A stretch of 64,000 nucleotides of DNA from Schmidtea nova. Taxonomy: Eukaryota. Under the pieces are notes generated by a model. That model was not told the origin of the DNA. It saw only the letters and a program-made list of their open reading frames with translations, and did no database searches. Positions 1 to 26,190 of the stretch are shown in pieces. The position numbers and the translations under genes are program-made. Every line of letters begins with the position of its first letter. Position 1 is the stretch's first letter. The DNA lies in NCBI GenBank assembly GCA_044892505.1, contig CM097883.1, positions 351,354,001 through 351,418,000 on the forward strand, in the 5' to 3' direction.

Positions 1-761
1 GCGGCATTGTAATAATTAGATAGTTATCGTATATTGGTTCAGAAAATCGGTTGCCTTCCATTCTTGGTCAATGACTCTTTCCACCCCCAACGCCTCCGAA
101 ATCTCGAGAAGTGCAACTGAACACAGCCTTGTTGAATCTACATAAGTAATTGACTTTTATCTAAACGACAATGTGGTTCTTACCCTGTTAATTTATATTT
201 AGATATTAATTAATATTATGGAAATATTAAAAGCTAAATTTCAACTATTTTATATTTTTAAATATAGCTAATAACAACACTCAGGAAACCTATAGAGATA
301 GCCTGCGCAACACAATGGATTTCCGCCAAAAATCTCAATCTATTGTTTCTTTATATTTGTTACTTAAAATTTTCGTTTGGCTTGAATAGTATTCGATTAA
401 GAGAAAATTCCTCGTTTCCGCTAACTCAATTTCATTTACATGTCCCTTGTGCATGCATTATTATCTCCTATCGTTTAAGAAGACAATAAATTTTCTGTTT
501 GAAAAGCTAAACAATAGATTCGAAATTTTCATTCTAACAATGAACTTTTGGACTTGGATTTTAGCTGTAATTAACCCTTTGATTTTTGAACAATAGAATT
601 CCGTTCTAACTTTTAAACAAATGAATGTGGAATTTTCTAATAATAGAATTCCTGTGTTTGAATAGGTTAAATTTTATTTACTGGTTAATTCGAAAAAGTG
701 AATAACTACTGTAAATGACTTTTGCGCAGATAACGACGTGAACTAAGTATTATTTTATTAA

Positions 762-1005
762 CCCTTAATGACCTGAATTAATTTTATTTTAATTTAAAAA
801 TTTTTTTTTGGATAAATCTATTATTTTATTAATATTTAAGATTATTTTCCATATTATTAAATAACTGCTTATGTCGGCTCGACTGAGGTTTCATATACAT
901 GCGAAAACACTTCCCGGCACGATTCGCTTGCACAAACAAGTACAGTCTTGCAAATAAAAAGTTATTGCGCGGCGTTGCCATATGGCAACGCTAGGTTAAT
1001 ATGGG
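762..1005. mobile_element. piggyBac-type non-autonomous element (MITE)
   Basis: TTAA on both sides (758-761, 1006-1009). Ends are CCCTTAATGACCT and (rc) CCCATATTAACCT, 10/13 identical. A subterminal palindrome CGTTGCCATATGGCAACG is present. Confidence 0.55.
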
Positions 1006-3442
1006 TTAAGGTTCTATACTAGATTTTGTTTAAATTCTCCTGAACATTTTGCTAGACATTATAGATTATTTATATTTTATTCATATTGATCTACCATAAA
1101 CCTTGATATTACTATCCGACTCTCTGGGGATCGTAAATACGACGGTCATGTCGGAAAAATTCCTCGCTGCTACAAATTTATGTTAACACTTATCATTTAT
1201 TTAAATTTATCGCTCTTGTTCTCTCGAAAAACATTTAATTGTAACCTCTTATTGACCCCTTCAGTTTACTCAGAAAGTATTCAAATCAGTTTTAAATTTG
1301 CCGATGACTCGAGCCATCCGTCCCACTTGTTCCGGGACCGACGACTCGAGCCACCGAAGGTCAGCAACCAAGAAGGCCTCGATGAACTTGAACACCTTCA
1401 TTTTTATGAGTTGTAAAATATACACAACAATATTTCTAAAACGCAGAGAACGATCAGATATGAGGGGTTACCCAACAAAATTAGAAAACGAACAATGAAT
1501 TACTTGCATAAAATGTATTTGAATAACAGATTCCACGGATATTCCAGTACGATGCCTTTTATTTTATAACAATAAAGATTACAAGAGTATTGAATAATTG
1601 CAATTTTGAGTAAAGTTACAAGTTAGAAAACTTAAAGTTAAAAGTAAAGGTTACAGTTAAATTAAGTTAAATTAAGTTGGTTAAGTTGGCTGATCTTATA
1701 TTGTAATTTGATTGTTCTGTCAGCCGATCAAATTCTTTGCCGCCCCAAAATTGGTTGGAATGTTAAAATTTTATCCGATTAAATTGGATTGTTTTTCCAC
1801 CAATTATTTCCTTCCATTTTTATATTTGTCCAATTTATTTTTGGATTATTTTTCAATTTATTTTTATTTTATAAACTGAAAGGAGTCGGAGTCGATAAAA
1901 GAAAATATCGACTCCGGAGTCGGGGGTCAATCGTTTTCCAATCGACTCCCCATCCAAACTTTGGATTATAATTAATGTTGATGCGCATGTATATGCATGT
2001 TGTTGAGGAGGATTGAAAAGCTCAACAGAGTCTTCTGTAAAAATTGTGTCGGGACTGTTTGGGTGAATGTTATATAAGTGGATGTATGTGTGCGTGTGTA
2101 TCTTTTTTTTTACAATATCAGTAAACTAAAAATAAATAACGAATAAAACAAATTTTATTTGGTTAACAGCTACAATAAGATAAAAATACAGTACTCACTT
2201 AATAAGTAATAAACTTGACTATTATGGTTCGTTCAAGAATTCTTCAAAAACTTTTTTTTAATCCATAAATTTTATTTGTGTTTTTTTGTCCTTAACAATT
2301 TATATAGTTTTACTATAGAAATTGCCTTATTCATTTTTTAATTTTAATTTCAAATTATTTAATCCAGCATTATAATATTACAATTATTAAACACATCATT
2401 AATTGCAATATTATTACTACAATTAACAACACTCTTCTCGAGGTCACGCTCAGTGACACACATACAAGAAAAACAATACATAAAAAAGGGACATACCAAA
2501 GAGACAAAATAAAAATAAAATAAATCAAAGCAAGCACACGATTGGTCTGAATCCCCTCCCAAGTTTGTGGTCGCTTGATGTCGCATCGTGGCTTATTCTT
2601 CTCGATCGCTTTGCGAACGGAATACCAGAGCTTCACGGGAACCGGCGACGACATCGCCACACACGGTTCCAAAAACCCTTAACAAAGTTTTCGGGATGGA
2701 AACATGTTATAAATGAGATAAGTAATAATTATCATTTATTCAATACTGCAATGAATTCACAAGTGTTCGGATATAAAATGCTAACAATGCTAAAACCAAC
2801 TTAAGTTCAGTCAATATACCTGTCAGAATTATGGTATCTCTATATATTTCATACAGCTCCTTATATAATTATGTGATTTACCTGGCCAATCAGATTGCTG
2901 CCACCCAGTAAATTATAGACTTCGTTATTTTGGAATACCGATATGTAATTTGTTTATCATATCTCGGTAGTAATTAAATCAAGTAATTGTATTCTATTTA
3001 TTTTTGTTTTATTCTTGTATTTATCCCATTTTTCTCATTATGTCTTGTTATTCCAGCTCATTTCTTTGCTTGTATTAATAATGTATAATTTTTTCCATTT
3101 ACTTCCCGCTTTTAGTTTATAAATTAATTCCAGGGTTAAATAAATTAATAAATAAGTAACAAAATAAGTCTTTCCTGCAATAACAATTTTATTAAGTGAC
3201 TTATTTATTAAATTATTTAATAGTTAATGCTGCTACCAGGGAATTATCATTTTATAGTTCCGTGGTTTTATTTCTATTCTATATATTTTAATTTTCGTAT
3301 TTTATTTAATTTTCTCTCTTTTTTATTGTATTTCCGTTTTTCTTGCTTAGTTGTTACAGCCCAATATTTAGAATCTAAATTTTAGATGAATGTGAGACAG
3401 GAACAATCTATATCGATTTACACTCATTAGTTTATAGATGTA

Positions 3443-4367
3443 TTAATTTCTCATATATGGTATACTACTCCAATAATCAAGATAATTGGGCAGTTTATTA
3501 ATTCCCGTTAGAAAAATTATTCTTATGAATGAATTTTGAAAGACAAAATCAATGATATCATCAGATATAACTTGACGACAGATTTCATACGGTGATGGAT
3601 TTTGAATTTGTCGATTATTTGCACTTTTCTCGATAACGAAATTTGTTAAACGTAAGGGACGTAACACAGGGGGCAATCGCCTTTTCTGGTACATTTAATA
3701 AGATTTGATTTCAAATGCTTCCTTCCTCACCTCTTTCACTTCTTACAAAATTTCATAAACTGTAGTTTTACTTTGAATCTCTTCGACAAACTTTTGGCTC
3801 GTCTCTTTTTCAGCCCCGTTATTATACTTCATTGAAAGCATAATTGAGATAATTAAGTAAATATTATTGGGAATAATTATGACAATAACAATTAAATTGT
3901 CTCATTTTTAATGACGCTCAATTGGGTTTATCATTAATTATTTGCGCAATTATCCGGGTTTTTTTCATCGCTCGGACTTCCTATTGGCCTAGATTTCTCA
4001 TTCAGATGTTAATTAATTTAAATTAGTTTGCTTTTTCGTAATAACTTTTTGTAGAAACCCTTCATTAAGTCTATTACTATTTTCGGGTTCATCTTATGAT
4101 TTGGCGTTCAACCATACCCATTCCACCCGGACAGTATTAATTTTTTGCACTTCAATTATTAATGTTTACTGATTGTAATATGTTCTTTTTTGTACTAACC
4201 CCAAAAATTCTCTAATCATCTGGCTTTGTAATTTCATCTACTTCATTTTTTGAGTTAGAAATAATCATTGTTCTCAATTCATCAATGCTTGATTCAGGAT
4301 CTGAAGGTATTTCTTCAAAAATTAATGTTTTAATATCATCTTCAGATAACAATTTTCCCCTCTTCAT
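3443..4367 (-). pseudogene. probable piggyBac transposase N-terminal remnants
   Basis: Acidic start MKRGKLLSEDDIKTLIFEEIPSDPESS (ATG at 4367) and SPYEICRQVISDDIIDFV both resemble piggyBac N-termini. A TTAACCC-type end lies near 4810 on the minus strand. Heavily broken. Confidence 0.4.
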
Positions 4368-5099
4368 GTTTGCCACATTGAATCTAAAGGGAAAATAACT
4401 TTATAAGCGGCAAATAATACATTTATAAGTTTTTAAAATAAATTATAAAAAAATTACTAGTTAATTTTATTATTTTCAATAACTTACAGAGTGGGATACA
4501 CACAATCCCGTCACGTATTCAGCTTCAAAATTAGTATAAAACATCAAATAATGTTTTTTTATTATAAAATTTATTCACTCATAATAGATTATACGAAAAG
4601 AAACAACATATACTCTTATATAAGCAAAAATTTGTTGCGCGACACAATTCACTACAACAGTGTCAACAGCTTATTAATGCGTTTTGACTTGAATAAATTT
4701 TTATTTATTATGCGTTTACCGTCGATTCATAGCATTGCCAATTGTATGAACAACTTTAAATAAAATATAAAACTGTATGACTATGAATAACTTCAACTTT
4801 TCGAGTTGGGTTAAAATATATCTCACCATGCGTACAAAGCTAAGAAAAAAGGTGTGACAAATTTAAACACACTTAACTTCAAAGAGTTAAATGTGTCAAG
4901 TTTTTATTTGAGTAGACATCAGTAGGGATAGGCGGGTCCTTTCCGATAACTTGTCGCTTTCTGTCACTCTATGAAGTGGTTATTTCTTTTCGTTTTTAGT
5001 CAGTTTAGAGCGATGTTGTGGTGATAATGGCATTTCGGAATTGTTGTATTAAGTTGTCTAAGGAATTGTGTTGACCATGCTAGTAATTGGTAATAAATG

Positions 5100-6830
5100 T
5101 CGTTTGTATGTCATTATCATTGTTAGGTGAAACGGCATTGGAGTTTATCTTTGTATTTTCTTATGAGACATTTAAAAAGTGTATTATTCACTCTAGTATG
5201 AGCTTGTAAAATGTCATCCGATATGATGAATGCTGTTTTTAAATGACACAAATTTATATTTTGGGTTGTAACATCTATTATTACTTGAGCGTTATTCTCA
5301 TGGATACTTAATAATTTATATGGGGCTGAATATCTTGGTTTCAAATACAGATTCGACGTGTTACGAACATAAATATTTGTTGCTTGTTCAAAATTCTATA
5401 GAATATATAGTTTGTACTAGCTAGATGAAGAGAATTTTAGGTTACTGTCAATTGAGAGCAAATGGTTTCTTGTCATATCAAGTTCTTCTAGTATAGGAAT
5501 ATAAAATCTATCAATTGATTTAGTAAAGAAGTTGAAGAATCAAAGACCGATTGGAAAGGGGAAGTTCCAGTCGTTATGGACGGTGTGTTTCACCTGCTTA
5601 AAAGAACAAAAGGTAAGGCTTTTTTTCAGTTTTGTTTGAAAGAAAGCATTCCCAAGGATGTTTTCAGTGTAATCTTTTAAACAACCCATTAATCTGTGGG
5701 TGATACACCGTCGAACTCAGATGTCGGATACCAAGTTTTTCGGTGAATTTTTAAAAAAATTGCGATTTACATTGTTTTTCTGTCTGTAATTATAAACATT
5801 GGAATGTAATATCGATATATCCAGTCTTGTAGTTTCATTGGCTACTATTTCGCCAGAAATGTTTTTAGTTTTGAACCAACAAGTTTTGCGGTCGATTATT
5901 GTCAACAAATATGAAAATTCTCCATTAATGGGTAATCAACAAGATCGATGTGCGGAGTTTAAAACCTGTTTCCAGTAGGGTCTGGATATTGGTGTGTTGT
6001 TGACATCCAACACATTGGTTCACCCATAATTTAACATCATGTCTTGTGGCTGGCCAGACTGCATGCGAATGCAGAAAATTGAAAGTTGCGGAGGACCCTG
6101 GATGATGTAAATCATCTATGGAGTGCAAAACTTATTTACAGATTGATTTATATGAAATTGGTCTCAATATTACAGATTCATCTATAATTTTATATTTTTC
6201 GCCAAATATAGCTGTCTTCCGTAGGAAGTGGTCTTTTCGAAGTTTTTTTTAACAGGAATCCGGTTTATTTAAAATCGCATTGGCGCTTCGAGAAAAACAA
6301 TCTACAATTATATTTTCTTTGCCAACAATTTGACAAATTTTGCAGCAAAATTCTTAGATAAAACTTATCTGCTTTTCTTTCTATCAGTGGTTTGTGATCT
6401 GTATAAACCTCGAAAGAACAACTTTCAAGCAAGTGCTTAAAATGTTTTATAGACATAAATTCCTAGAAGTTCCCGATCAAAAAGCTAAGTAGTTATGTTG
6501 GGCCGAACAGAGTACTGAACAAATACTCTATGATTTCAGAGACTTCACCGTTTATTTGGCGAAGTTTTGAAACGTCAGTAGTTAATCTCAAAGGGGCGGA
6601 TTACCTGTGGATAGCGCAATCTTTGTATGTTTGTAATAGCTCTTTTTACATTGCATAAAGCTTCCAATGAGTTGTCGTTCAAATCAATTAAATAATTCTT
6701 TGGTTTAGAACAAAATATTGAAAAAGAAGCGAGAATTTAGGTACTTTTTGGATGAATCGGTGACAGTAATTAATAGTACCTAAAATAAGGAATTGCGTGA
6801 CTATTTTTGGAAGAGGACTATTTGCTATTG
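5100..6830 (-). mobile_element. degraded Ty3/Gypsy pol (end of RT, RNase H, integrase)
   Basis: LGTINYCHRFI (RT), FEVYTDHKPL (RNase H), HHPG...WP...CVGCQ (integrase zinc finger) and PRYSAPYK (GPY/F-like) occur in Gypsy order. Many stops and frameshifts. Confidence 0.8.
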
Positions 6831-6944
6831 TATTCAATCTTTTCCGTAAGTGGACGAATTGCATTACCTGAAATCATTTTCCTAGATGTGATGTAATAAA
6901 TAAATCACAATTTGAAGGACCGTGTAATTTATTTGTTTTAACAG

Positions 6945-7114
6945 CTGTATTCGTTGCTTTTTGTAATAACTTGAACTCTATCGACAACCAAATACGCCAA
7001 GTAGTAAACGGCTTCCAATTGGCCCATCATAGAAATATTAGATCCAGTCGTGGAAACTTCCACGAAAGCCTTGGTCATAGCAATTCCAATATCGTATATA
7101 GTCAAAGTAGTGGA
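6945..7114 (+). CDS. candidate host exon, product unknown
   Basis: ttttaacag acceptor, open frame VFVAFCNNLNSIDNQIRQVVNGFQLAHHRN..., gtatgt donor. No family recognised. Confidence 0.25.
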
Positions 7115-7782
7115 GTATGTATTTGTTATTACTTTGATCATTAAATCCCTTTGGCTATCAAAAACTGATGGGTCAGCTAGGCTATTGTAACTAACTTTAT
7201 TAAGAAAATCACTGACATTCTTTGTTTGAATAAAATGTGTTGAAGATCAAACAAATCAACCGGGATTTCTCAGCTTGTAAAGGAAAGGTTTCAGGTTCTG
7301 AAATATTTGACATCTTTTCTGGTTTTTCGTTTATTTAAACAAGCTTTATTTTTAATTTATTAATATAGATAATTTAATGAAATTTAATTATTGATAATTA
7401 TTGATAATTATTGATATATAAATTTAAATAAAATAATCTAACATAATGTTAGTAAGTATACTTATTAAAAATTTTACATTATTATAGGTATAATTATACC
7501 TGAATTATAGAACCAGCACACTAGGAAAAGAACTTCCTCTTAAAAATGGCTATTAATTTATATTGCATGTATGACTGTCTAAGTGCAATTTATGTGTCTC
7601 TGCATCTTTAGATCCAATAAGTATGTTGGATAGCAAAATNNNNNNNNNNNNNNNNNNNNNNNNNNNNNNNNNNNNNNNNNNNNNNNNNNNNNNNNNNNNN
7701 NNNNNNNNNNNNNNNNNNNNNNNNNNNNNNNNNNNNNNNNNNNNNNNNNNNNNNNNNNNNNNNNNNNNNNNNNATTCCTAGA

Positions 7783-8508
7783 AGTGAATTTGTATTACCA
7801 GTGAGAATATATTTTCACTAACGTTTCAGTGAATTTATATCCGAATACGTTTTCACCAGTGGAAATATATTTCTACTGGTGAAAATATAACTTCACTAGC
7901 AAGTTTTAGTGAATGTGTATTCTACCCTAACCTATAATTGAATGTCAGTTTGACAGTTTGACAGTTGCGTGTTTTTTTGTTTTCATTTAAAATACGCATC
8001 TAAGTAGATTAAGATATGGAAATGGATTCAATTCGAGTTATTTAACGGTCTAGTTATCAAAATAATTCTTATATTCGATGGAAATGCTCTTTCTGTGTTC
8101 TCAAAATTAGGACCTATCGGTCAACCGCACAGGTTATTTCTAGCCTGTAGACTACCCGAGTCAAAAGTTTAAATTTCACAGGAGATACAACAAGCTCAAT
8201 AAAACATTGAATGATATATTAATTTATTTTGAACTTACACATTAAATATAATTACATATTTAGAAAAATTAAAAAACTTTTAAAAACATTTGTCAGCTAG
8301 ATGAAAGAATACACTAAAAGTGACAGCTGGTAGGGCGACACATCGACACTTAAGGCCAAATATTTCCATGCGGCGAATTCTCGATTGTCAATGAATACAA
8401 ACTCACTAAATGTAACCAGTGAATTTGTATCTTCATTGTTAGATATACATTGTTAGATATACATTTCACCAGTGAAAATATATTCTCACTGGTAATATAA
8501 ATTCACTG
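7783..8508. mobile_element. MITE with ~37-bp terminal inverted repeats (Tc1/mariner-type CAGTG end)
   Basis: AGTGAATTTGTATTACCAGTGAGAATATATTTTCACT at 7783 is inverted at 8471-8507 and followed by G-TA. The left tip is slightly altered next to an N gap. Confidence 0.65.
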
Positions 8509-12751: not shown

Positions 12752-13210
12752 TTATATTGCAAATTGTTTTACATAGCTTTTGACAGTCTCGTTATATTCA
12801 TTAATATCGTTAATATATAAATTGGCTGCTTTAGTATTTAATGGGCTGTAAGGATTCGGATCGGCTAACAATGAAATAATTGATATTAAAACTTTGCTGA
12901 TATTTAAACAAGGTGCCCAGTTATCTTTTAGAATGTCTAAACAAATTCCGTTTTTATAAATATTTGGATGAAATATCTTTGTAAGAAATTCTATTCGAGG
13001 AGGTGAAAAAGGATATCTTTCTGGTAAATGTAGTTTCAATTTAAATAAACCCTCTTCAAATGGAGTATCAACAGGACCTTTAATTGTCGCATTCCATATG
13101 TAAATATTATTTTCTTCAGGAGCTGCACTGATTTTTATATCATTATCTGAACATTCTTTTAGCCATTTAATGTCGTTTTTAATTCTAATCATAAACTTGG
13201 AGTTGCTCAT
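12752..13210 (-). CDS. intronless ubiquitin-conjugating enzyme E2 (UBC fold), 152 aa
   Basis: Open ORF from ATG at 13210 with GPVDTPFEEGLF, YPFSPP, FHPN, catalytic Cys in ICLDIL, and W.P...I..VL.SI.SLL.DPN. It has one residue fewer than usual between HPN and the Cys. Confidence 0.92.
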   Translation of the reverse strand: MSNSKFMIRIKNDIKWLKECSDNDIKISAAPEENNIYIWNATIKGPVDTPFEEGLFKLKLHLPERYPFSPPRIEFLTKIFHPNIYKNGICLDILKDNWAPCLNISKVLISIISLLADPNPYSPLNTKAANLYINDINEYNETVKSYVKQFAI

Positions 13211-14673
13211 AACTAACACTAAATATTTTTAAATTGTTATGTTTTTTAAAATAAATAGTACTTAATTAATTAAATAATTTAATTTCGGTGATTTTCATTG
13301 GATTAAATTTTAAAATNNNNNNNNNNNNNNNNNNNNNNNNNNNNNNNNNNNNNNNNNNNNNNNNNNNNNNNNNNNNNNNNNNNNNNNNNNNNNNNNNNNN
13401 NNNNNNNNNNNNNNNNNNNNNNNNNNNNNNNNNNNNNNNNNNNNNNNNNNNNNNNNNNNNNNNNNNNNNNNNNNNNNNNNNNNNNNNNNNNNNNNATGAC
13501 TATAGATCAAAAAATTTTTTTTTTATAAACAACACAATATTTCGGCACAGCCTTTATNNNNNNNNNNNNNNNNNNNNNNNNNNNNNNNNNNNNNNNNNNN
13601 NNNNNNNNNNNNNNNNNNNNNNNNNNNNNNNNNNNNNNNNNNNNNNNNNNNNNNNNNNNNNNNNNNNNNNNNNNNNNNNNNNNNNNNNNNNNNNTGTGCC
13701 GAAATATTGTGTACTTATTTAAAGAAATTTTGATCTAGTCTTACCATTATGGAAATTATTGATATTAATATTAAAAAAGATCAAAGGTGAAACAAAAAGA
13801 AAATTATGATTATATATATACAGGGCCGGCCCGAGCTCTTATGGCGCCCTAGGCCAAGGGTGTAAATCTCGCCCCATAAGTTTTAACAAACAAAAAAAAG
13901 AATCAACTAAAAATTTTTTATTTTGTTATTATGATTGGCAATGCTATATATATATATATATATATTTGGGAAGGCGGTTGTTAAATTATTCTCTAGCAAA
14001 TAGTTTAGAATTGCAGTAGGAGAATCACAACAATCTGTAGACAAATGATTTTTGATGTATTAATTCGTCAAACAAATCCAAGCCGGAAATATCCTTTTGA
14101 TCACCGTCAGTTAGGAGAATACAATCAAATTTTGCATCTGTTCTATAGTCTTCCAGGAACACCATGCTCTTTGATAACAACGTTACTGCTTGGCTCAGGT
14201 TTAAACCAACTTCTTGAAATGCTTTGCTAGTTACAATTATATCAAACAAAATATCATACCATACAATTAAAGAGCAGATAAATTTCTATTTTTCAATATT
14301 TTGCAATATAGCTGTGGCTTCTGACTTGTTCCTCGCTGCTGTGACTGTGGTAACATTAGGTTGCCCATCCTCATTCATACAATCATACAGAGCCGCAATA
14401 ACTTCTTTGAGGTGATATCGTAGAGGCTTTAAAGCATCAATTCAACTGGCCCATCTAATTTCACTTAGACTTTTCAACGTAAAATTAGCTATATATTTTT
14501 TTTAATAAAGCCCAGCGTTGAGTTGACGATGAGAAAAAACATACAAATGCTGAATGATATCTGGTCGCGCCCGCTTTGTAAAATATTAAAAAAATTAATT
14601 AAATAAAAATAAAATAGTTAAAGGCGGGGCTTGATGGCTGTGAGAGATTGTGGGGCGAGCCTGGAAGTCTGAA

Positions 14674-14730: not shown

Positions 14731-15529
14731 CACAACATGGGCGGTGCGATTGCCATTCATTCTGCTGTTAAATCTGTGATACCTTCACTAGTCGGATTAG
14801 TTGTAATTAATGTTGTTGAAGGATTACATGACGAAATTACACAAGACGAAATTACACGAGACGAAATTACACGGGATGAAATTACACAAGACGAAATTAC
14901 ACTAAAAAATAGTAAAAAATAAAATTAAAAAAATAGTAATTATAACCCTAATAGACGATTAGAGTTTTTGTGGTCAATAGCTCATATTACTTAACATTAA
15001 ATGTTTGATTTCTATTTTTTTACTTTATCTCTCACTATTCATAAAATTAAGAATTATATTATCATTAAAGAGACAAACTAGTAATTTGAATATATTTATT
15101 AATTAATTATTAAATATTATAATTATTTTTTTATTTAAATTTATATTGATTTTTTTATTTAAATTTTTATTATTTTATTATTTAAAATTTTCAATATATT
15201 TAATGCTAAATTTAATACTTAACTTTTACTAATTTTTTAAAAACTTTTTATTAAAACTTTTTACTAATTTTTTTTAAACTTACTATTTTTTAGTGTAATT
15301 TCGTCTCAGTGTAATTTCATCTTGTGTAATTTCGTCTCAGTGTAATTTCATCTTGTGTAATTTCGTCTCGTGTAATTTCATCTTGTGTAATTTCGTCTCG
15401 TGTAATTTCGTCTTGTGTAATTTCGTCTTGTGTAATTTCGTCCTGACACATGTTGAAGGATCAGCACTCGGCGCATTATACAGTATGAATAATTATCTTC
15501 ACAGCAGACCGTGTGTTTTCAAATCACTA
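14731..15529 (+). pseudogene. PPME1: protein phosphatase methylesterase 1 (PME-1) fragment split by a MITE
   Basis: HNMGGAIAIHSAVKSVIPSLVGLVVINVVEG|SALGALYSMNNYLHSRPCVFKSL aligns with PME-1 GHSMGGAIAVH...DVVEGTAMDALNSMQNFLRGRPKTFKSL. The catalytic Ser position reads Asn. Confidence 0.85.
14824..15450. mobile_element. 627-bp foldback/MULE-type MITE with arrays of ~15-nt subterminal repeats
   Basis: TGTTGAAGGA is duplicated exactly (14814-14823, 15451-15460). Five copies of GACGAAATTACAC(A/G)(A/G) lie on the left and ten inverted copies on the right, around an AT-rich core. Confidence 0.9.
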
Positions 15530-19500: not shown

Positions 19501-22318
19501 CCAGACGTTTTTTAGTTACCATTTGCTTTGTTAGGTTGAGTTTTGTGGAGGCGATTGCGCGATAAAGGATAGTATGATAGAGAGCTCACATATATATCAC
19601 TTAGCATTATTTTTCCAAGAGAAGATTGCATACTTCTTCTCAAAGGCTTTCCATAAAATTGTACGTTGTTTAATCCTGGGGTGAAGATTAATTAATTATT
19701 TTTTATAAAAAGTTTTTTGGGGTTTAATTTGTAAATTATGAAAAAAATTAATAAATTAAATTAAAAAAAATTTCATTATTAAATTTTGAGATTTCTTATT
19801 TAAATATTTAACAATTAAGATGAATTAAGTCAATGAATATTTTAATTAACATGATTGATAAAATTTTTACCCGTTGGATATATTTTCTACTCGTTTTGCA
19901 ATGTAAATACTAAAATTCCTAATAGCAATAAAAACTGATCATATAATGTAATAAAAATTGTATACCGTCTTATTATCATGAAAACATGAATTATGACATG
20001 AGTTCTATAAGTAAAGCTTATCAATGAAAACCAGTGCATATTTACGATTTGTATGATGAAAACAAAAACTTCTGTTCTTAAACCAATTTCAAGAATAGGA
20101 AAAAGATGATAAAGATTTTCCGAAGTACAAAGAAGCCATTTAAGTTCAATATAATCTTTGTTAAGATTGTAACAAAATTGTATGTGAGAATTAATTCATC
20201 CTATGATAGAGTTCTGTAAGATTATATGAAGTGGTCAGTGAAAGAAAGACGTATGAAAATGAATGAAAATTGACAACAGTTTTCGGTTATTAAACATTTG
20301 AACTTTTTGCTAGTATTCTTAACAAGTCTTATTAACAATTCAAATTGTTATATATGAAATATGGTAATCTTCCGCCGTATTTTGAAGTCACAAATTAACA
20401 ATTGTTTATCTATATTACAATAATCCCTCGTGACTTCTATATTGACCATTTATAAAGAGATAGACGTAATAAATTATTATAGTAGTCGTTTCTTATTTAT
20501 TTGATTTGTGTTTTCCGAAATTTTCTTTCGTGGCAATTGCGCCGTATTGAGATTGCGTCGTTTGGATGGAGTTGCGTTTTATCAGGTACTTCGTCATTTT
20601 TAAAAAAAAAGAGGTATGTGAATCGACAAAGTTTGTGTATTATTCTGTACACGAAAATTTAGATATTCACAGATTTTTAACCAAATTGACCGATAAATTA
20701 TAGCTATAGCCAATTTTATTTTATCAATTAAAATATACGAATTTCTGCTGTGAAAAAAATCTTTCTTTATAGTCTTTTCTTTTAAAGCAGCAACTGCTAC
20801 CTTTCCTTACTGGTTTAAAGGCACACTAAAATTAGGAAATTTTGAAATCTTATTTTTAACCTAGCTAAAATAAATCTAAACAAGGCTTGAGCAATCAGTG
20901 GCTCTAAGCAAAATTTCTTGATGTTAAAAAAATTTTGAAATTGATTTCGATGAACTATGCAGAATAATTGTAATAATAATATAGTACTATTTAAACTCTT
21001 CGTATTTATTAAAATTTTATTTTGTTATAGCCATTATTTTAATAATTTTGAAATTGATTCCATTTTGGTTTGAGTGTTCATAGGCCGGATTTCAACAGTC
21101 AAAAAATAATTCACCAAAATAATTTTTCTCTATTTTAATTAATCCATTAGAATTAATCCAATTCAGAGACATTAATTTCCGGAAATTTTTTTTTACCTGT
21201 TCTCAATACTTCAAATATTTACTTCTATTGCTTGGTTAGGCGATAGTAATTTTTTTTAACAATGAATTTCATAATATTTCTTGCATTTAAACCATATATC
21301 AAAATATTACTTCGTGTGTATAATTTTATCATAAATTTTGTCAACTTTATCATTATAAAATCTCCATAAATACCAAACATAAATTTTTACAAGCTTTTAA
21401 GGTAATTATTATGTTCAAATATTAAATAGTAATATTATATTTGTATGGAATTTTATGTAACTTTATATAAAGGGTAATTGTAATGTTTTGTTGATGAGAA
21501 GGTTTGTAGAACCCAACAGAGTCTCCTGTACAAATAACTGTGTCGGGACTGTTGGGGTGATTGCTATATAAATGGGTGAGTGTGTGCGTGCTTATGTTAT
21601 TATGCAGAAGTAACAAATAAATTATTAATAATAACCAATTTCATTAACTTTAAATAACCAATAAAATTTAACGTGTATCACGTATTCACAAAGGTTTTAA
21701 GCCTAAATATTTTGTTCTTCTAAAAATTATTTTCTTTGTCGTTTTTATCCAATCTTTTAAATTTCCATCCATTTCTTATAATTTTATTGTTTGGCAATTT
21801 GAGCCAGTCGTTATTTTTTTTAAACTTAATTTAAAATTAATTTCCCTATGATACAAATTATTATTTACAATATAAAAAGAATTAACAATCATAACTACGA
21901 TGGGGGGTCAATTTCCAAAAATCGAAGACAACTCAAACACAATCATCACAATAAAATAATTAAATAGTGATTTTTATCAAGCACAACAGTAATATTCGTC
22001 GATAAGAGATTTACTAGCCCAATTGCCAAAATTATGATCGTCAAAATATGATTTAAAGTGAATTTTTCCAGGATTAAAAGACATTTGTCAAGGTTTAAAT
22101 TTTTTAGAATAACTTGAAAATTATTCCAATTAAATATTTATTTTTAAATTTTACACTAAACCTAATTTAAATTATTATTTAAAAAACAAAATTAATAAAA
22201 GACAAATCAAATTTTAATTAATATTATTAGGATTTTCATCCTTTAAAACATTAGAATCAGTTTTACAACAATTTGAATTCATAACTTTTATTTCAGAAAA
22301 ATATAATTATCAAAATAA

Positions 22319-22860
22319 TGTTGGGCCAGGCAAATCAGCAATCATCTAAAATAAAAATAGAATCAATAAAATCAATAACATAAAAACAACAACAAAATAA
22401 ATTACTATCACTAAGTATTCAGCAATAAGCGGCAGAATCTAAAAGTAATAAAGCATAAATCAAAATAGACAATAACAATAAGAACTCACCCGGAATACCA
22501 ATAATTTGAAAATCTGACAAGGCGTGGGCGGATATCACCGAGAATCTAAAATAAAGCAAATAATAACAAAAGATTCACGCATGATTAAACAAACAACTTA
22601 CCGAATTAAATACACAGAGAAATCAGCGAGCATAAAAGATTGGCAATAAATGCACACATGCTCGATTCTGATTGGCTGGCCAGCAACATCATATAGTATA
22701 AATACTGAGGCAAAATCAGTATAAGGGTCACTTTTTATCAGAGTCAAATTTGAACTGTTATTAAACAGAATTGAACTCAGAATAACCTGTAATTGTGAAG
22801 CCAATAAAAGGTACGTAAGTAGATCGTTATTTTTTCTATTAAACCCTCATGCTAAAATCA
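22319..22860 (+). mobile_element. candidate solo LTR
   Basis: TG...CA ends with ATAA on both flanks. An inverted CCAAT (GATTGG) precedes TATAAATA (~22697), followed by AATAAA (22803). A 4-bp AT-rich TSD is weak evidence. Confidence 0.4.
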
Positions 22861-23136
22861 ATAAGTTTTGTCCCGAAGATCTAACGATCTGATGATTTGT
22901 GTTATGTTTAATACACGTTATAAACATCTCTGTTGTTTGAATCTATCTGTGAAAGTGTGAGTGCTGTAGGAGTGACGAGAATACCGTACTAGCTAGTGTC
23001 TACGTGATAAGGGTAGGGGTATCAATGGCAGTTGAGATTGACGTATTTGCTGCGCTGAGACGTCACGGTGGTTGATTCTTCAGATACGGGTGTTTCATTG
23101 CCTGAATGTAAATAAAAACTATTAAATATTTAAATA

Positions 23137-23730
23137 TTATACTTTTTCAGAAACATAAAATTTATATATATTTCCATTAAATTTGTGTATTTTGACTCTC
23201 CTCCTTATAGCTTCCATGATCGAGCTAGTGATGGTTTCAGGATAGAATAAATCCAAGTCATTGATGCAAAAAACTCGAGGAATGCCTTTTGGAATTGTTG
23301 CAACGCCATATTTGATGTTAATTGCATTCTCATATGCGCAGTCCACTAAGCACAGAAATTCATCTACGTGTGCGTTGTTGAAATAGAGGTCGTCAAACAC
23401 CAAGCCATCACACAAATCGATATTAGATGAGATTTTATTCAGACTCTGTATATGCTTTACATGCACCGGGTGTTTAAAGTGCGAGAGCGCAAAATTAGTT
23501 TTGCCTATACCACTCTCTCCAAAGAATATGTGTGACTTCCAATCAAACACATTTATATGATCTATAACAAATCCAGAGCCAAAATTCGGTAATGTTTCCT
23601 CTCCAAAAGCATTAATCAAACTTTCTACTATACTCTTTCTCTTAGTTAAGTAATGAAACGATTCAGAAGACTTTATAATATTTATTACTTCATTCAAAGT
23701 TTTAGCATCGAGTGCTTGTTTAAAATTGCA
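23137..23730 (-). other. rep: endogenous CRESS-DNA virus Rep fragment (oligomerisation region plus SF3 helicase)
   Basis: Open frame KQALDAKTLNEVINIIK... with Walker A GESGIGKT, Walker B LVFDD, NIKYG, motif C FCIN and arginine finger AIRRR. The HUH endonuclease domain is absent. Confidence 0.85.
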
Positions 23731-23829
23731 TCTTTAACAATATCACAATTATATTTACTAGGCTCTCCTATCTTCAGTTGGATTCCGTTGGCGACTCTGG
23801 ACTCTGGCTTGCAACAGTATTAATTTTTC

Positions 23830-25600
23830 ATTAAGTTTTTCCACATTTCTTTCGATTATTTTACCATTTTCATTTCTTAAGATGTATCGTCTATCATGCA
23901 CTTTCTCGTTCACTTTGTATGGACCTTCATATCTGTCCTGGCTTTTGTTGCGTGTTTCTAATTTTACTAACACTTCTCGTACAGTGATTTTTCTCCTTGT
24001 TTGTTCTTCTAGTTCTTCCTTTACCGGTATTTCTTTGGACCCGTACCATTTTTCCCTGCTAATCTTTTTTCCAAAAAACTATCTCTGCCGGGCTTTTCCC
24101 TGTTGTTTTTTGTTTGGTTGCATTTAATGTGAATTCGACTTCTGGTAATATCTCTGCCCAATCCGTCTTCCTTCTATCCTGTAGAGTAGCATTTATCAGC
24201 TCCCGTATTGTCCCGTATTGTCTTTCTATCTGACCGTTTGTTTGGTGATGGTATGGACTCGAAAAACATAATTTAATATCTAGCATCTTTGTAAAATCTC
24301 TCATCATTCCTGATTCAAACGCCTTTCCACAATCAACTCTTATCTCCTTTGGGCATCCAAATCTTAAAATCCACTTTTCTAAAATCGTTTTCTTTATTGT
24401 TTCCTCGTCTTGTTTTGTTATCGCTGTCAAAACTTGATACTTACTATGCTGGTCTATTATACCCAATATATACTTCTTACGTCCTTTTGTTTCTTTTAAC
24501 GGTCCACATATATCCACGAATATAATTTCGAACATTTCATTTGATTCTTGTTTATTTACTGGTTCTTTCGTTGTTATTGTTATAGCTTTGGTTTTTTGAC
24601 AAATCTCACAACTTCGAACAATTTCCTGAATCTGACTCCACAGGTGTTTTCCAACATATCTATCTTTCATATATTCGGCGATCTTCTTGACTCCCGCATG
24701 ACACAATAGTCTATGTATTTCCTTTATTGTTTCTCGTAACTCATTTTCAGGTATCATCGTTTTCTTTCGTACTTCTTCTTCTACAATTCCATGTTGGTTG
24801 TTGCTTCTCCCTTCTTCTCTGATCGAGTCTAGTAATCTGGTTTTTATCTTTCCTTTCTTAGCTTCTTCGTGGGCCATTTGACACTGAACACACATGTCAC
24901 ATTTAGTTCTCGACACCATGTCTGCATTTTGGTGATTAATACCCTTTCTGTATTCTACGCTTATATATAAACTGCTTAAATAATTGATCCATGTTTGGAA
25001 TTGTGTAGTAATCGGCTTCTTGGTTGTCATCATAAACGTGATTGCCTTGTGATCTGTCCTGAGCGTGAATCTTCTTCCGTAGAGATAGTGCTTAAAATGA
25101 ATGCAAAAATAATATACCGCCAATAGTTCCTTTCTTGTAATACAATATCCTTTCTCATGGCTCGTCATCGAGTGTGATCCATACGCAATTACTCTTTCCT
25201 TTCCATCTTTATCTCTTTGTGAAAGTAATGATCCGATGGTATCAAAACTAGCGTCAGTATCTAAAATGAACTCCTTTTCCAGATCCGGAAAACATAAGAT
25301 CGGCGCCGTCGTGAGTGCTAATTTCAATCCTTTCAAACACGCTATTCGTTCCTTCAGTCCATTCTAATTTTTTGTTACTTGGTCCGCTACATAATTGTTC
25401 TAACATCCTTGCCTTCTTTGCATACTCACTGATGAATCTTCTATAATAATAGCAAATACCTAAAAAGCTTAGGAGTTTCTTTACGCAATTTGGCTTCCCA
25501 AAGTTTTGTTTGGCCTGAATCTTAGATGGATCTGTCTGTACTCCTTCCTTGCTGATTATGTGTCCTAAGAATCTGATTTCTTTCTTTATTCTTTTGTCGA
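23830..25600 (-). mobile_element. Ty3/Gypsy pol fragment (end of RT, RNase H, integrase)
   Basis: FLGHIIS, LTTAPIL.FPD, ILDTDAS, ELLAV, LRTDHKA, H.LLCHAG...C.IC, FVDICGP, VDCGKAF, YHHQTNGQIER and RYEGPY. Few frameshifts; 5' part missing. Confidence 0.95.
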
Positions 25601-26190
25601 GAATATCCAAGTAAAGAATACTTCAAATCTTTGGCTAAGGTCAGAATAAAGCGCCGTTAAGTGTTGACAATAAGCAAATAAATCTTCATCTTTTTTTTGC
25701 AATTTTGAAAGATTTTGAAATTCAGAACATTCTCCTCTTCCCAAGTTTTGTTTGTATAGCAAAAGCTTTGCAACAAAGGCAGATATTACACTTTTAGTTT
25801 TGATTAAATTTAATGTGTCAACTTCTAGTTTCAAATTAGTCTCGTTAAATCTGGCAAATAGATCAGTCATATAAGCGATGCCATTTTTTGAGATAATTAA
25901 ATTGTGCCACAAATTATTGTCTTTACTCTCCAGGAATTCCAACACTGAATCAAAGAGCGAATAGAAGCGATCCAAACATACACTTTTAGATAACCAACGT
26001 ACTTCTGTGTTAAGTAGTAAACGATTAAAGTAATCATTATTTTCCAAAAAAAGTTGAGCAAATAATCTCTCATTTAAGGCATTCCTTTTTATTTTATTAA
26101 CTGCTCTAATGATATAATGTAGTGATTCATGCAAACGTTCACTAAGGTTTTTGCGACCAAATGATGTCGATGAATGACACAATTCTAGAA

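Follow-up and report, generated by a model that had tools for sequence, protein, structure and literature searches.

We found that an open reading frame (ORF) lying beside a Ty3/Gypsy retrotransposon copy encodes a CRESS-type Rep SF3 helicase. The ORF is located in a 64,000-nucleotide stretch of DNA, referred to here in its entirety as the window. The Rep gene is cut at its 5′ end, frameshifted and without a usable start codon, and is preserved no better than the Gypsy copy that it adjoins. Sequence-based trees place it with PEVE Rep, from a virus-like element of planarians. We consider it probable that the gene is a dead, one-off endogenous viral element that DNA repair or a deletion brought into contact with a truncated Gypsy copy.

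The Rep ORF and its protein class

The initial annotation of this DNA had described an uninterrupted ORF of about 197 codons with all SF3 helicase motifs, and both the ORF and the motifs proved real. A stop-free frame of 198 codons is present at 23137–23733 on the minus strand, and at this base composition the chance of a stop-free run of that length is about 1e-7 per given frame. This main frame of the Rep remnant comprises oligomerisation helices and a complete SF3 helicase, with Walker A (GESGIGKT) at residues 72–79, Walker B (FDD) at 113–115, motif C (CIN) at 156–158 and AIRRR, with the arginine finger present, at 175–179. NIKYG and ALDAKTLNEVINII are also found in the frame. The CRESS Rep motif set was taken from PMC5923481. 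In an alignment of the query with 35 relatives (A1, 36 rows), the columns of G72, G77, K78, T79, D114, D115, N158, R178 and R179 were invariant or nearly so, and the predicted structure had a pLDDT of 92.5. The sole in-frame ATG is codon 173 of 198.

Assignment of the product to the CRESS Rep helicases, as the initial annotation had it, was borne out by both sequence and fold. A phmmer search of 1.84 billion representatives returned 1119 hits at E ≤ 0.001; the best four were 39–45% identical to the query, and the best 150 of the 1119 matches were 104–532 aa long. The nearest Atlas clusters were viral and mostly Cressdnaviricota (0.97). Among the 50 matches listed in a BFVD fold search, the named entries were all viral Rep or replication proteins: the top folds were Reps of unclassified CRESS viruses, PEVE Rep ranked eighth (E 2.6e-17) and the first geminivirus came at rank 20, with 19% identity. 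In the PDB fold search, papillomavirus E1 and PCV2 Rep came top, with cellular AAA+ folds appearing only from rank 22 down. A direct Pfam search of the ORF gave only AAA_24 (E 0.16), and direct single-sequence searches of phages, PDB sequences and IMG/VR gave no match. A cellular, Helitron or Polinton helicase was also considered and was rejected, as the sequence, Atlas and fold matches were CRESS Reps.

The description of the protein as gemini/genomo-like held only in part. Like the Reps of Geminiviridae and Genomoviridae, it has the NxKYG motif, and its central domain resembles Gemini_AL1_M (PF08283) in 12 of the 36 A1 rows. Unlike them, it showed PF00799 in 0 of 36 rows and the circo/nano-type Viral_Rep domain (PF02407) in 18 of 36, and geminivirus and genomovirus fold matches came only at ranks 20–24 (E about 1e-9). 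When the top 30 hits were scanned, PF00799 was seen in one, P0033, which falls outside the query's clade.

A frameshift within the Rep gene

The roughly 100 bp that separate the ORF from the end of the integrase are Rep DNA in another frame. This upstream piece of the remnant (23734–23822, minus strand) encodes HUH motif III (YCCK) and a linker, and was recovered by profile search, blastp and tblastn. With a profile built from 33 relatives, the query left out, the motif III peptide came top of 2690 window peptides (E 4.5e-6; runner-up 1.6). Its best blastp match was PEVE Rep (E 9e-4), and tblastn of PEVE Rep linked both pieces. A profile search of the window peptides for HUH motifs I and II gave no hit (best E 1.2); these motifs are cut off at the Gypsy junction. 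The HUH nuclease, previously reported as lacking, is therefore absent as regards motifs I and II and present, out of frame, as regards motif III.

We placed the frame break between about 23760 and 23733. The motif III tyrosine lies about 100 codons from Walker A, compared with 98–111 in six relatives; both pieces therefore belong to a single gene, interrupted by a frameshift. An intron as the source of the break was ruled out, as this spacing leaves no room for one. Thus 'uninterrupted' is true of the 198-codon frame and not of the gene.

It had also been suggested that the frame was intact among decayed neighbours and, being intact, recently inserted. Neither view survived comparison with the Gypsy copy. 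The Rep remnant has one frame break in about 228 codons and the Gypsy copy two in about 590; the Gypsy copy has a stop-free frame of 434 codons, against 198 for Rep, and four N-free frames in the window exceed 198 codons. The absence of stops bounds neutral divergence at below about 0.145 for Rep, which is weaker than the bound of below 0.043 for the neighbouring pol frame. Rep and pol are about equally decayed, and the age of Rep is only loosely bounded.

Relationship to PEVE and PIVE

In a tree of 154 of the 156 candidate rows, the query, PEVE Rep and seven unnamed Reps formed a nine-row clade (SH 0.984). This group was defined after that tree and before a tree of 37 hand-picked rows, in which the PEVE-containing clade had support of 99/95 under a mixture model. 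In an LG tree of 55 rows (a 47-row clade and eight outgroups), support for the nine-row set was weak (8.1/58), and an 11-row set holding the query and PEVE reached 98.9/99. The nearest relatives of the query in the mixture-model tree were P0003, P0004 and P0006 (95/87), with PEVE on a long branch. When IMG/VR was scanned with alignments, PEVE came first among the loci both times (33% identity). Among the search hits from which the trees were built, the query grouped with PEVE Rep (99/95), not with the gemini- or genomoviruses to which the initial annotation had likened it.

The likeness to PEVE has its limits. The two Reps share a clade in three trees, yet they are only about 33% identical, and the unnamed Logan/ENA Reps P0003–P0006 are closer to the query, at 39–45%. 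PEVE is the one named member of the clade, which otherwise consists of unnamed metagenomic Reps (P0003–P0006, P0065, P0139 and P0274). The large segment of PEVE ends in inverted repeats of 243 nt and carries further ORFs; these ORFs have no match near the Rep described here, and no long inverted repeat was found in 21900–24100. As the PEVE segment has such inverted ends, the donor was not necessarily a circular virus of the usual type.

According to Liu et al. (2011, PMC3198968), PIVE is an integrated PEVE-related element in Schmidtea mediterranea, and PEVE itself was not found integrated. PIVE_3p adjoins PEVE Rep in the tree text of that paper's supplement, a machine-read listing rather than a topology. 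PIVE differs from our Rep, when compared by its description there, in being a repeated element, whereas ours is a lone broken fragment.

Annotated Reps of the PEVE clade (L001 at 3291–3908 and 3800–4618, plus strand; P0003, P0004 and P0006) start no earlier than motif II, and in PEVE a stretch resembling motif I lies upstream, in a different frame; Rep in this clade may be spliced. A metagenome contig, L021, carries a PEVE-like Rep over two frames (133–624 and 548–1105, plus strand), split elsewhere than in the query. It could be another endogenous copy, or the result of sequencing error.

The Gypsy copy and the junction

The Rep abuts a truncated Ty3/Gypsy pol at 23831–25594 on the minus strand, which contains the end of the reverse transcriptase (RT), RNase H, the integrase and an SH3-like tail (Pfam RT_RNaseH, rve, Integrase_H2C2 and SH3_Tf2-1) and has two frame breaks. 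This copy is a 1.8 kb internal piece. It is cut at 25594, where other copies continue (loose ends in three runs), its 5′ part is replaced by a hAT-like fragment, and no 3′ UTR, purine tract or LTR was seen at 23831–25594.

As first described, the Rep is oriented like the Gypsy pol and starts within about 100 bp of the integrase end, where integrase homology stops near 23831–23835. Because this gap is itself Rep motif III and linker, the viral DNA touches Gypsy directly; it starts at motif III and meets the Gypsy copy near 23822–23835. The junction (23820–23845, minus strand) contains a short imperfect tandem repeat of two AAAAA(C)TTAA units.

Copy number of Rep and of the Gypsy family

We compared contigs of four public runs with 21400–26600 of the window at 80% likeness. 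Two of the runs, X1 and X3, are two samples from one study of organism A, and may include the source of the assembly. Rep was covered in X1 by one 919-nt contig (22956–23854) and in X3 by two (22920–23301 and 23272–23865), all with 0 differences and 0 gaps, so the frame break exists in those runs too. The Rep contigs of both runs were unbranched and without variants. The junction-crossing X3 contig (record 9, 23272–23865) has 30–34 letters on the Gypsy side, which is at the 31-letter limit of the method.

Depth was 14–19 over Rep (23140–23661) and 8–38 over the low-copy flank at 21748–22095. The bins on either side of the junction had depths of 33–37 (23662–23835) and 1,281–2,954 (23836–24009), and from Gypsy to Rep the depth falls about 100–200-fold. 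From that bin onward, the summed Gypsy depth in X1 and X3 was 1,281–8,208, a summed depth not being equivalent to a copy number. Together, the depth step and the unbranched Rep contigs show the Gypsy family to be abundant, diverse and not carrying Rep. Rep is apparently single-copy, although contigs drop rare variants, so a rare second copy could escape. Capture of Rep into the Gypsy family, as initially proposed, thus failed on the fall in depth at the junction, as far as the contigs show.

Run X9, from organism C, had a depth of 10.9–36.6 over 22966–23313 and 23488–23835 at 80% likeness. No contig piece was among those listed for these bins, and the cover may come from an element that is orthologous or otherwise related, or from chance matches of AT-rich DNA. 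X6 (organism B) had no cover over 22444–23661 and X9 none over bin 23314–23487, and such uncovered parts are uninformative.

DNA beyond the Rep stop codon

Past the Rep stop is a low-copy stretch (22950–23136), which may be either viral or host DNA, with no match to a capsid or to a Rep tail. It is followed by a repeat at 22096–22965 (plus strand; borders to bin resolution) that is present at high copy in organism A, with a depth of 750–3500 in X1 and X3. A motif scan of this repeat found TATAAA at 22697 and AATAAA at 22803 on the plus strand, which suggests an LTR-like unit facing the plus direction, opposite to Gypsy. On the minus strand, 22250–23136 is free of purine runs of at least 10 letters and of A runs of at least 7.

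Comparison of 21400–23140 with 18 loci, for a capsid or other gene, gave only one chance hit (E 0.054), and comparison of 22850–23140 with 29 loci gave no match; no PEVE gene other than Rep was found near the locus. The nonanucleotide origin pattern had 15 matches against 13.7 expected, with none between 20977 and 27805 and none within 2 kb of Rep. Rfam gave 0 matches. We also considered whether the post-stop DNA was a C-terminal tail of Rep, and rejected this, since 1035 of 2000 shuffles scored equally high.

Other features of the window

The window is AT-rich (12–39% GC per 2 kb) and repeat-dense, with six assembly gaps. A frame at 39550–40101 (plus strand) had no Pfam hit and was read by Atlas as an RNase T/DEDD exonuclease (0.91). 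It lies 4.6 kb past a Gypsy-like integrase tail, read from motifs, at 34197–34964 (plus strand). Giant Gypsy lineages with a 3′–5′ exonuclease exist.

A ubiquitin-conjugating E2 gene at 12752–13228 (minus strand) adjoins assembly gaps and consists of one unbroken frame. Its best match, which is unnamed, is 77% identical and all others are at most 58% identical; the gene is possibly a retrocopy. A short LTR-like repeat occurs in two copies (21489–21639 and 1998–2144) that are 76% identical, and is abundant in the runs of organisms A and C. At 14826–15445 a 15-bp unit forms inverted arrays separated by about 430 bp, which are perhaps the ends of a foldback-type element.

Origin of the Rep remnant

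The Rep is most likely the endogenous trace of an ssDNA virus. The initial proposal of a past ssDNA virus infection was right. The explanation we favour would begin with an ssDNA virus or virus-like element, related to PEVE, replicating in a germ-line (or stem) cell nucleus of the host. A piece of its Rep, from motif III to just past the stop, would have become attached to one copy of an abundant Gypsy family, at that copy's broken 3′ end. This could have happened when end-joining repaired a double-strand break, with loss of the Gypsy 3′ end, or later, when a deletion removed the DNA between two neighbouring insertions. The joined piece would then have taken one frameshift and would make no Rep. 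We infer the repair or deletion mechanism, the fixation in the germ line, the lack of function and a planarian-like host, which the lineage makes plausible.

An unlikely alternative is a one-off capture, in which the Gypsy RT, while copying its own RNA, jumped to a viral Rep mRNA, and the hybrid cDNA integrated once; the insertion may now feed antiviral piRNAs, as has been proposed for RNA-virus endogenous viral elements (EVEs) in Aedes. The shared strand and the direct junction at the integrase end are also expected of such a chimera, and to that extent count against repair or deletion; the short repeat at the junction likewise favours capture, and the equal decay of Rep and pol fits co-insertion. 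There is a precedent in Aedes, where EVEs are enriched beside Ty3/gypsy elements in the same orientation and template switching has been proposed (10.1101/127498). The Aedes cases, however, resemble ours only in having a viral fragment beside Ty3/gypsy in the same orientation: they derive from RNA viruses and lie in piRNA clusters (10.1101/127498), whereas the Rep comes from a DNA virus and is without the signs of a completed LTR hybrid. Capture would also be expected to leave a poly(A), a purine tract or a same-strand 3′ LTR signal after Rep, and none was seen there; the flanking repeat instead appears, from its TATA and AATAAA motifs, to face the opposite way. A DNA virus that replicates in the nucleus needs no RT for integration. 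In a window so repeat-dense a repeat neighbour is the norm, and shared orientation, having a 50% prior, is a matter of even odds. We regard as quite improbable a more elaborate version, in which the hybrid made by the Gypsy RT with mRNA from a PEVE-related ssDNA virus is copied in antisense from the facing LTR-like repeat and yields piRNAs against that virus, possibly in a related species too.

It is hardly credible that the Rep helicase has become a 3′ module of some Gypsy family or subfamily and is spread by it. Gypsy elements with additional ORFs usually have them after the integrase, which is where Rep sits, and the intact helicase motifs and the pLDDT of 92.5 would suit a working module. 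The depth step at the junction speaks against it, as do the one or two unbranched, variant-free contigs over Rep, the missing start codon and the frameshift just upstream; as weak evidence, no Rep fusion of 924–2635 aa was scored among 3721 candidates, relatives being 104–532 aa among the best 150 of 1119. Nor did we find a Gypsy family bearing a CRESS Rep in listings of the open literature. An assembly artefact, in which a free virus in the sample was joined to a repeat, is very unlikely: Rep does lie between two high-copy repeats in a gapped scaffold of short-read type (six N runs), and the bridging contig is borderline in length, but two samples carry Rep letter for letter at similar, host-like depth, one contig spans the junction, and a replicating virus would not miss motifs I and II or have a frameshift after motif III. 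We see only a very slight chance that the helicase has been kept and is expressed, which would require splicing to an upstream exon or a viral-gene intron at the break. Its catalytic motifs are all intact over 198 stop-free codons, and the annotated starts of several relatives seem to lack motif I, a hint that Reps of the clade are spliced. Against expression, the motif III–Walker A spacing is already about 100 codons (98–111 in six relatives), with no intron room, the upstream DNA is broken pol, and a frame evolving neutrally would be expected to stay free of stops until it had diverged by about 14%.

Comparison with known endogenous Reps and implications

Liu et al. (2011, PMC3198968) report 302 Rep-like and 3 capsid-like endogenous sequences from 35 eukaryotes; many are fragmentary, and several lie within transposons. 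CRESS EVEs are described from invertebrates, parasitic flatworms and protists, and have been used as host markers (PMC6186406, PMC10269781 and PMC9615429), and Rep chimerism is described as widespread (PMC6668415). Our Rep resembles the endogenous CRESS Rep fragments presented by Liu et al. (2011, PMC3198968), Rosario et al. (2018, PMC6186406) and Kinsella et al. (2022, PMC9615429) in being Rep-only, truncated, frameshifted, at low copy and within a transposon. It does not differ from the endogenous fragments of eukaryotes in kind, and its lineage is unclassified. As PIVE integration and Rep fragments within transposons had already been reported (PMC3198968), the finding is of little surprise.

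As a gene, the Rep remnant is a broken fossil without importance. It would have greater importance only if small-RNA data showed Rep serving antiviral defence; were the RT-capture and piRNA reading true, a retrotransposon would have built, in a planarian-like host, an immune memory of a DNA virus. The remnant is of use as a host marker: with the species of the genome known, it would tie the PEVE clade to a host and add to it a lineage only 33% identical to PEVE.
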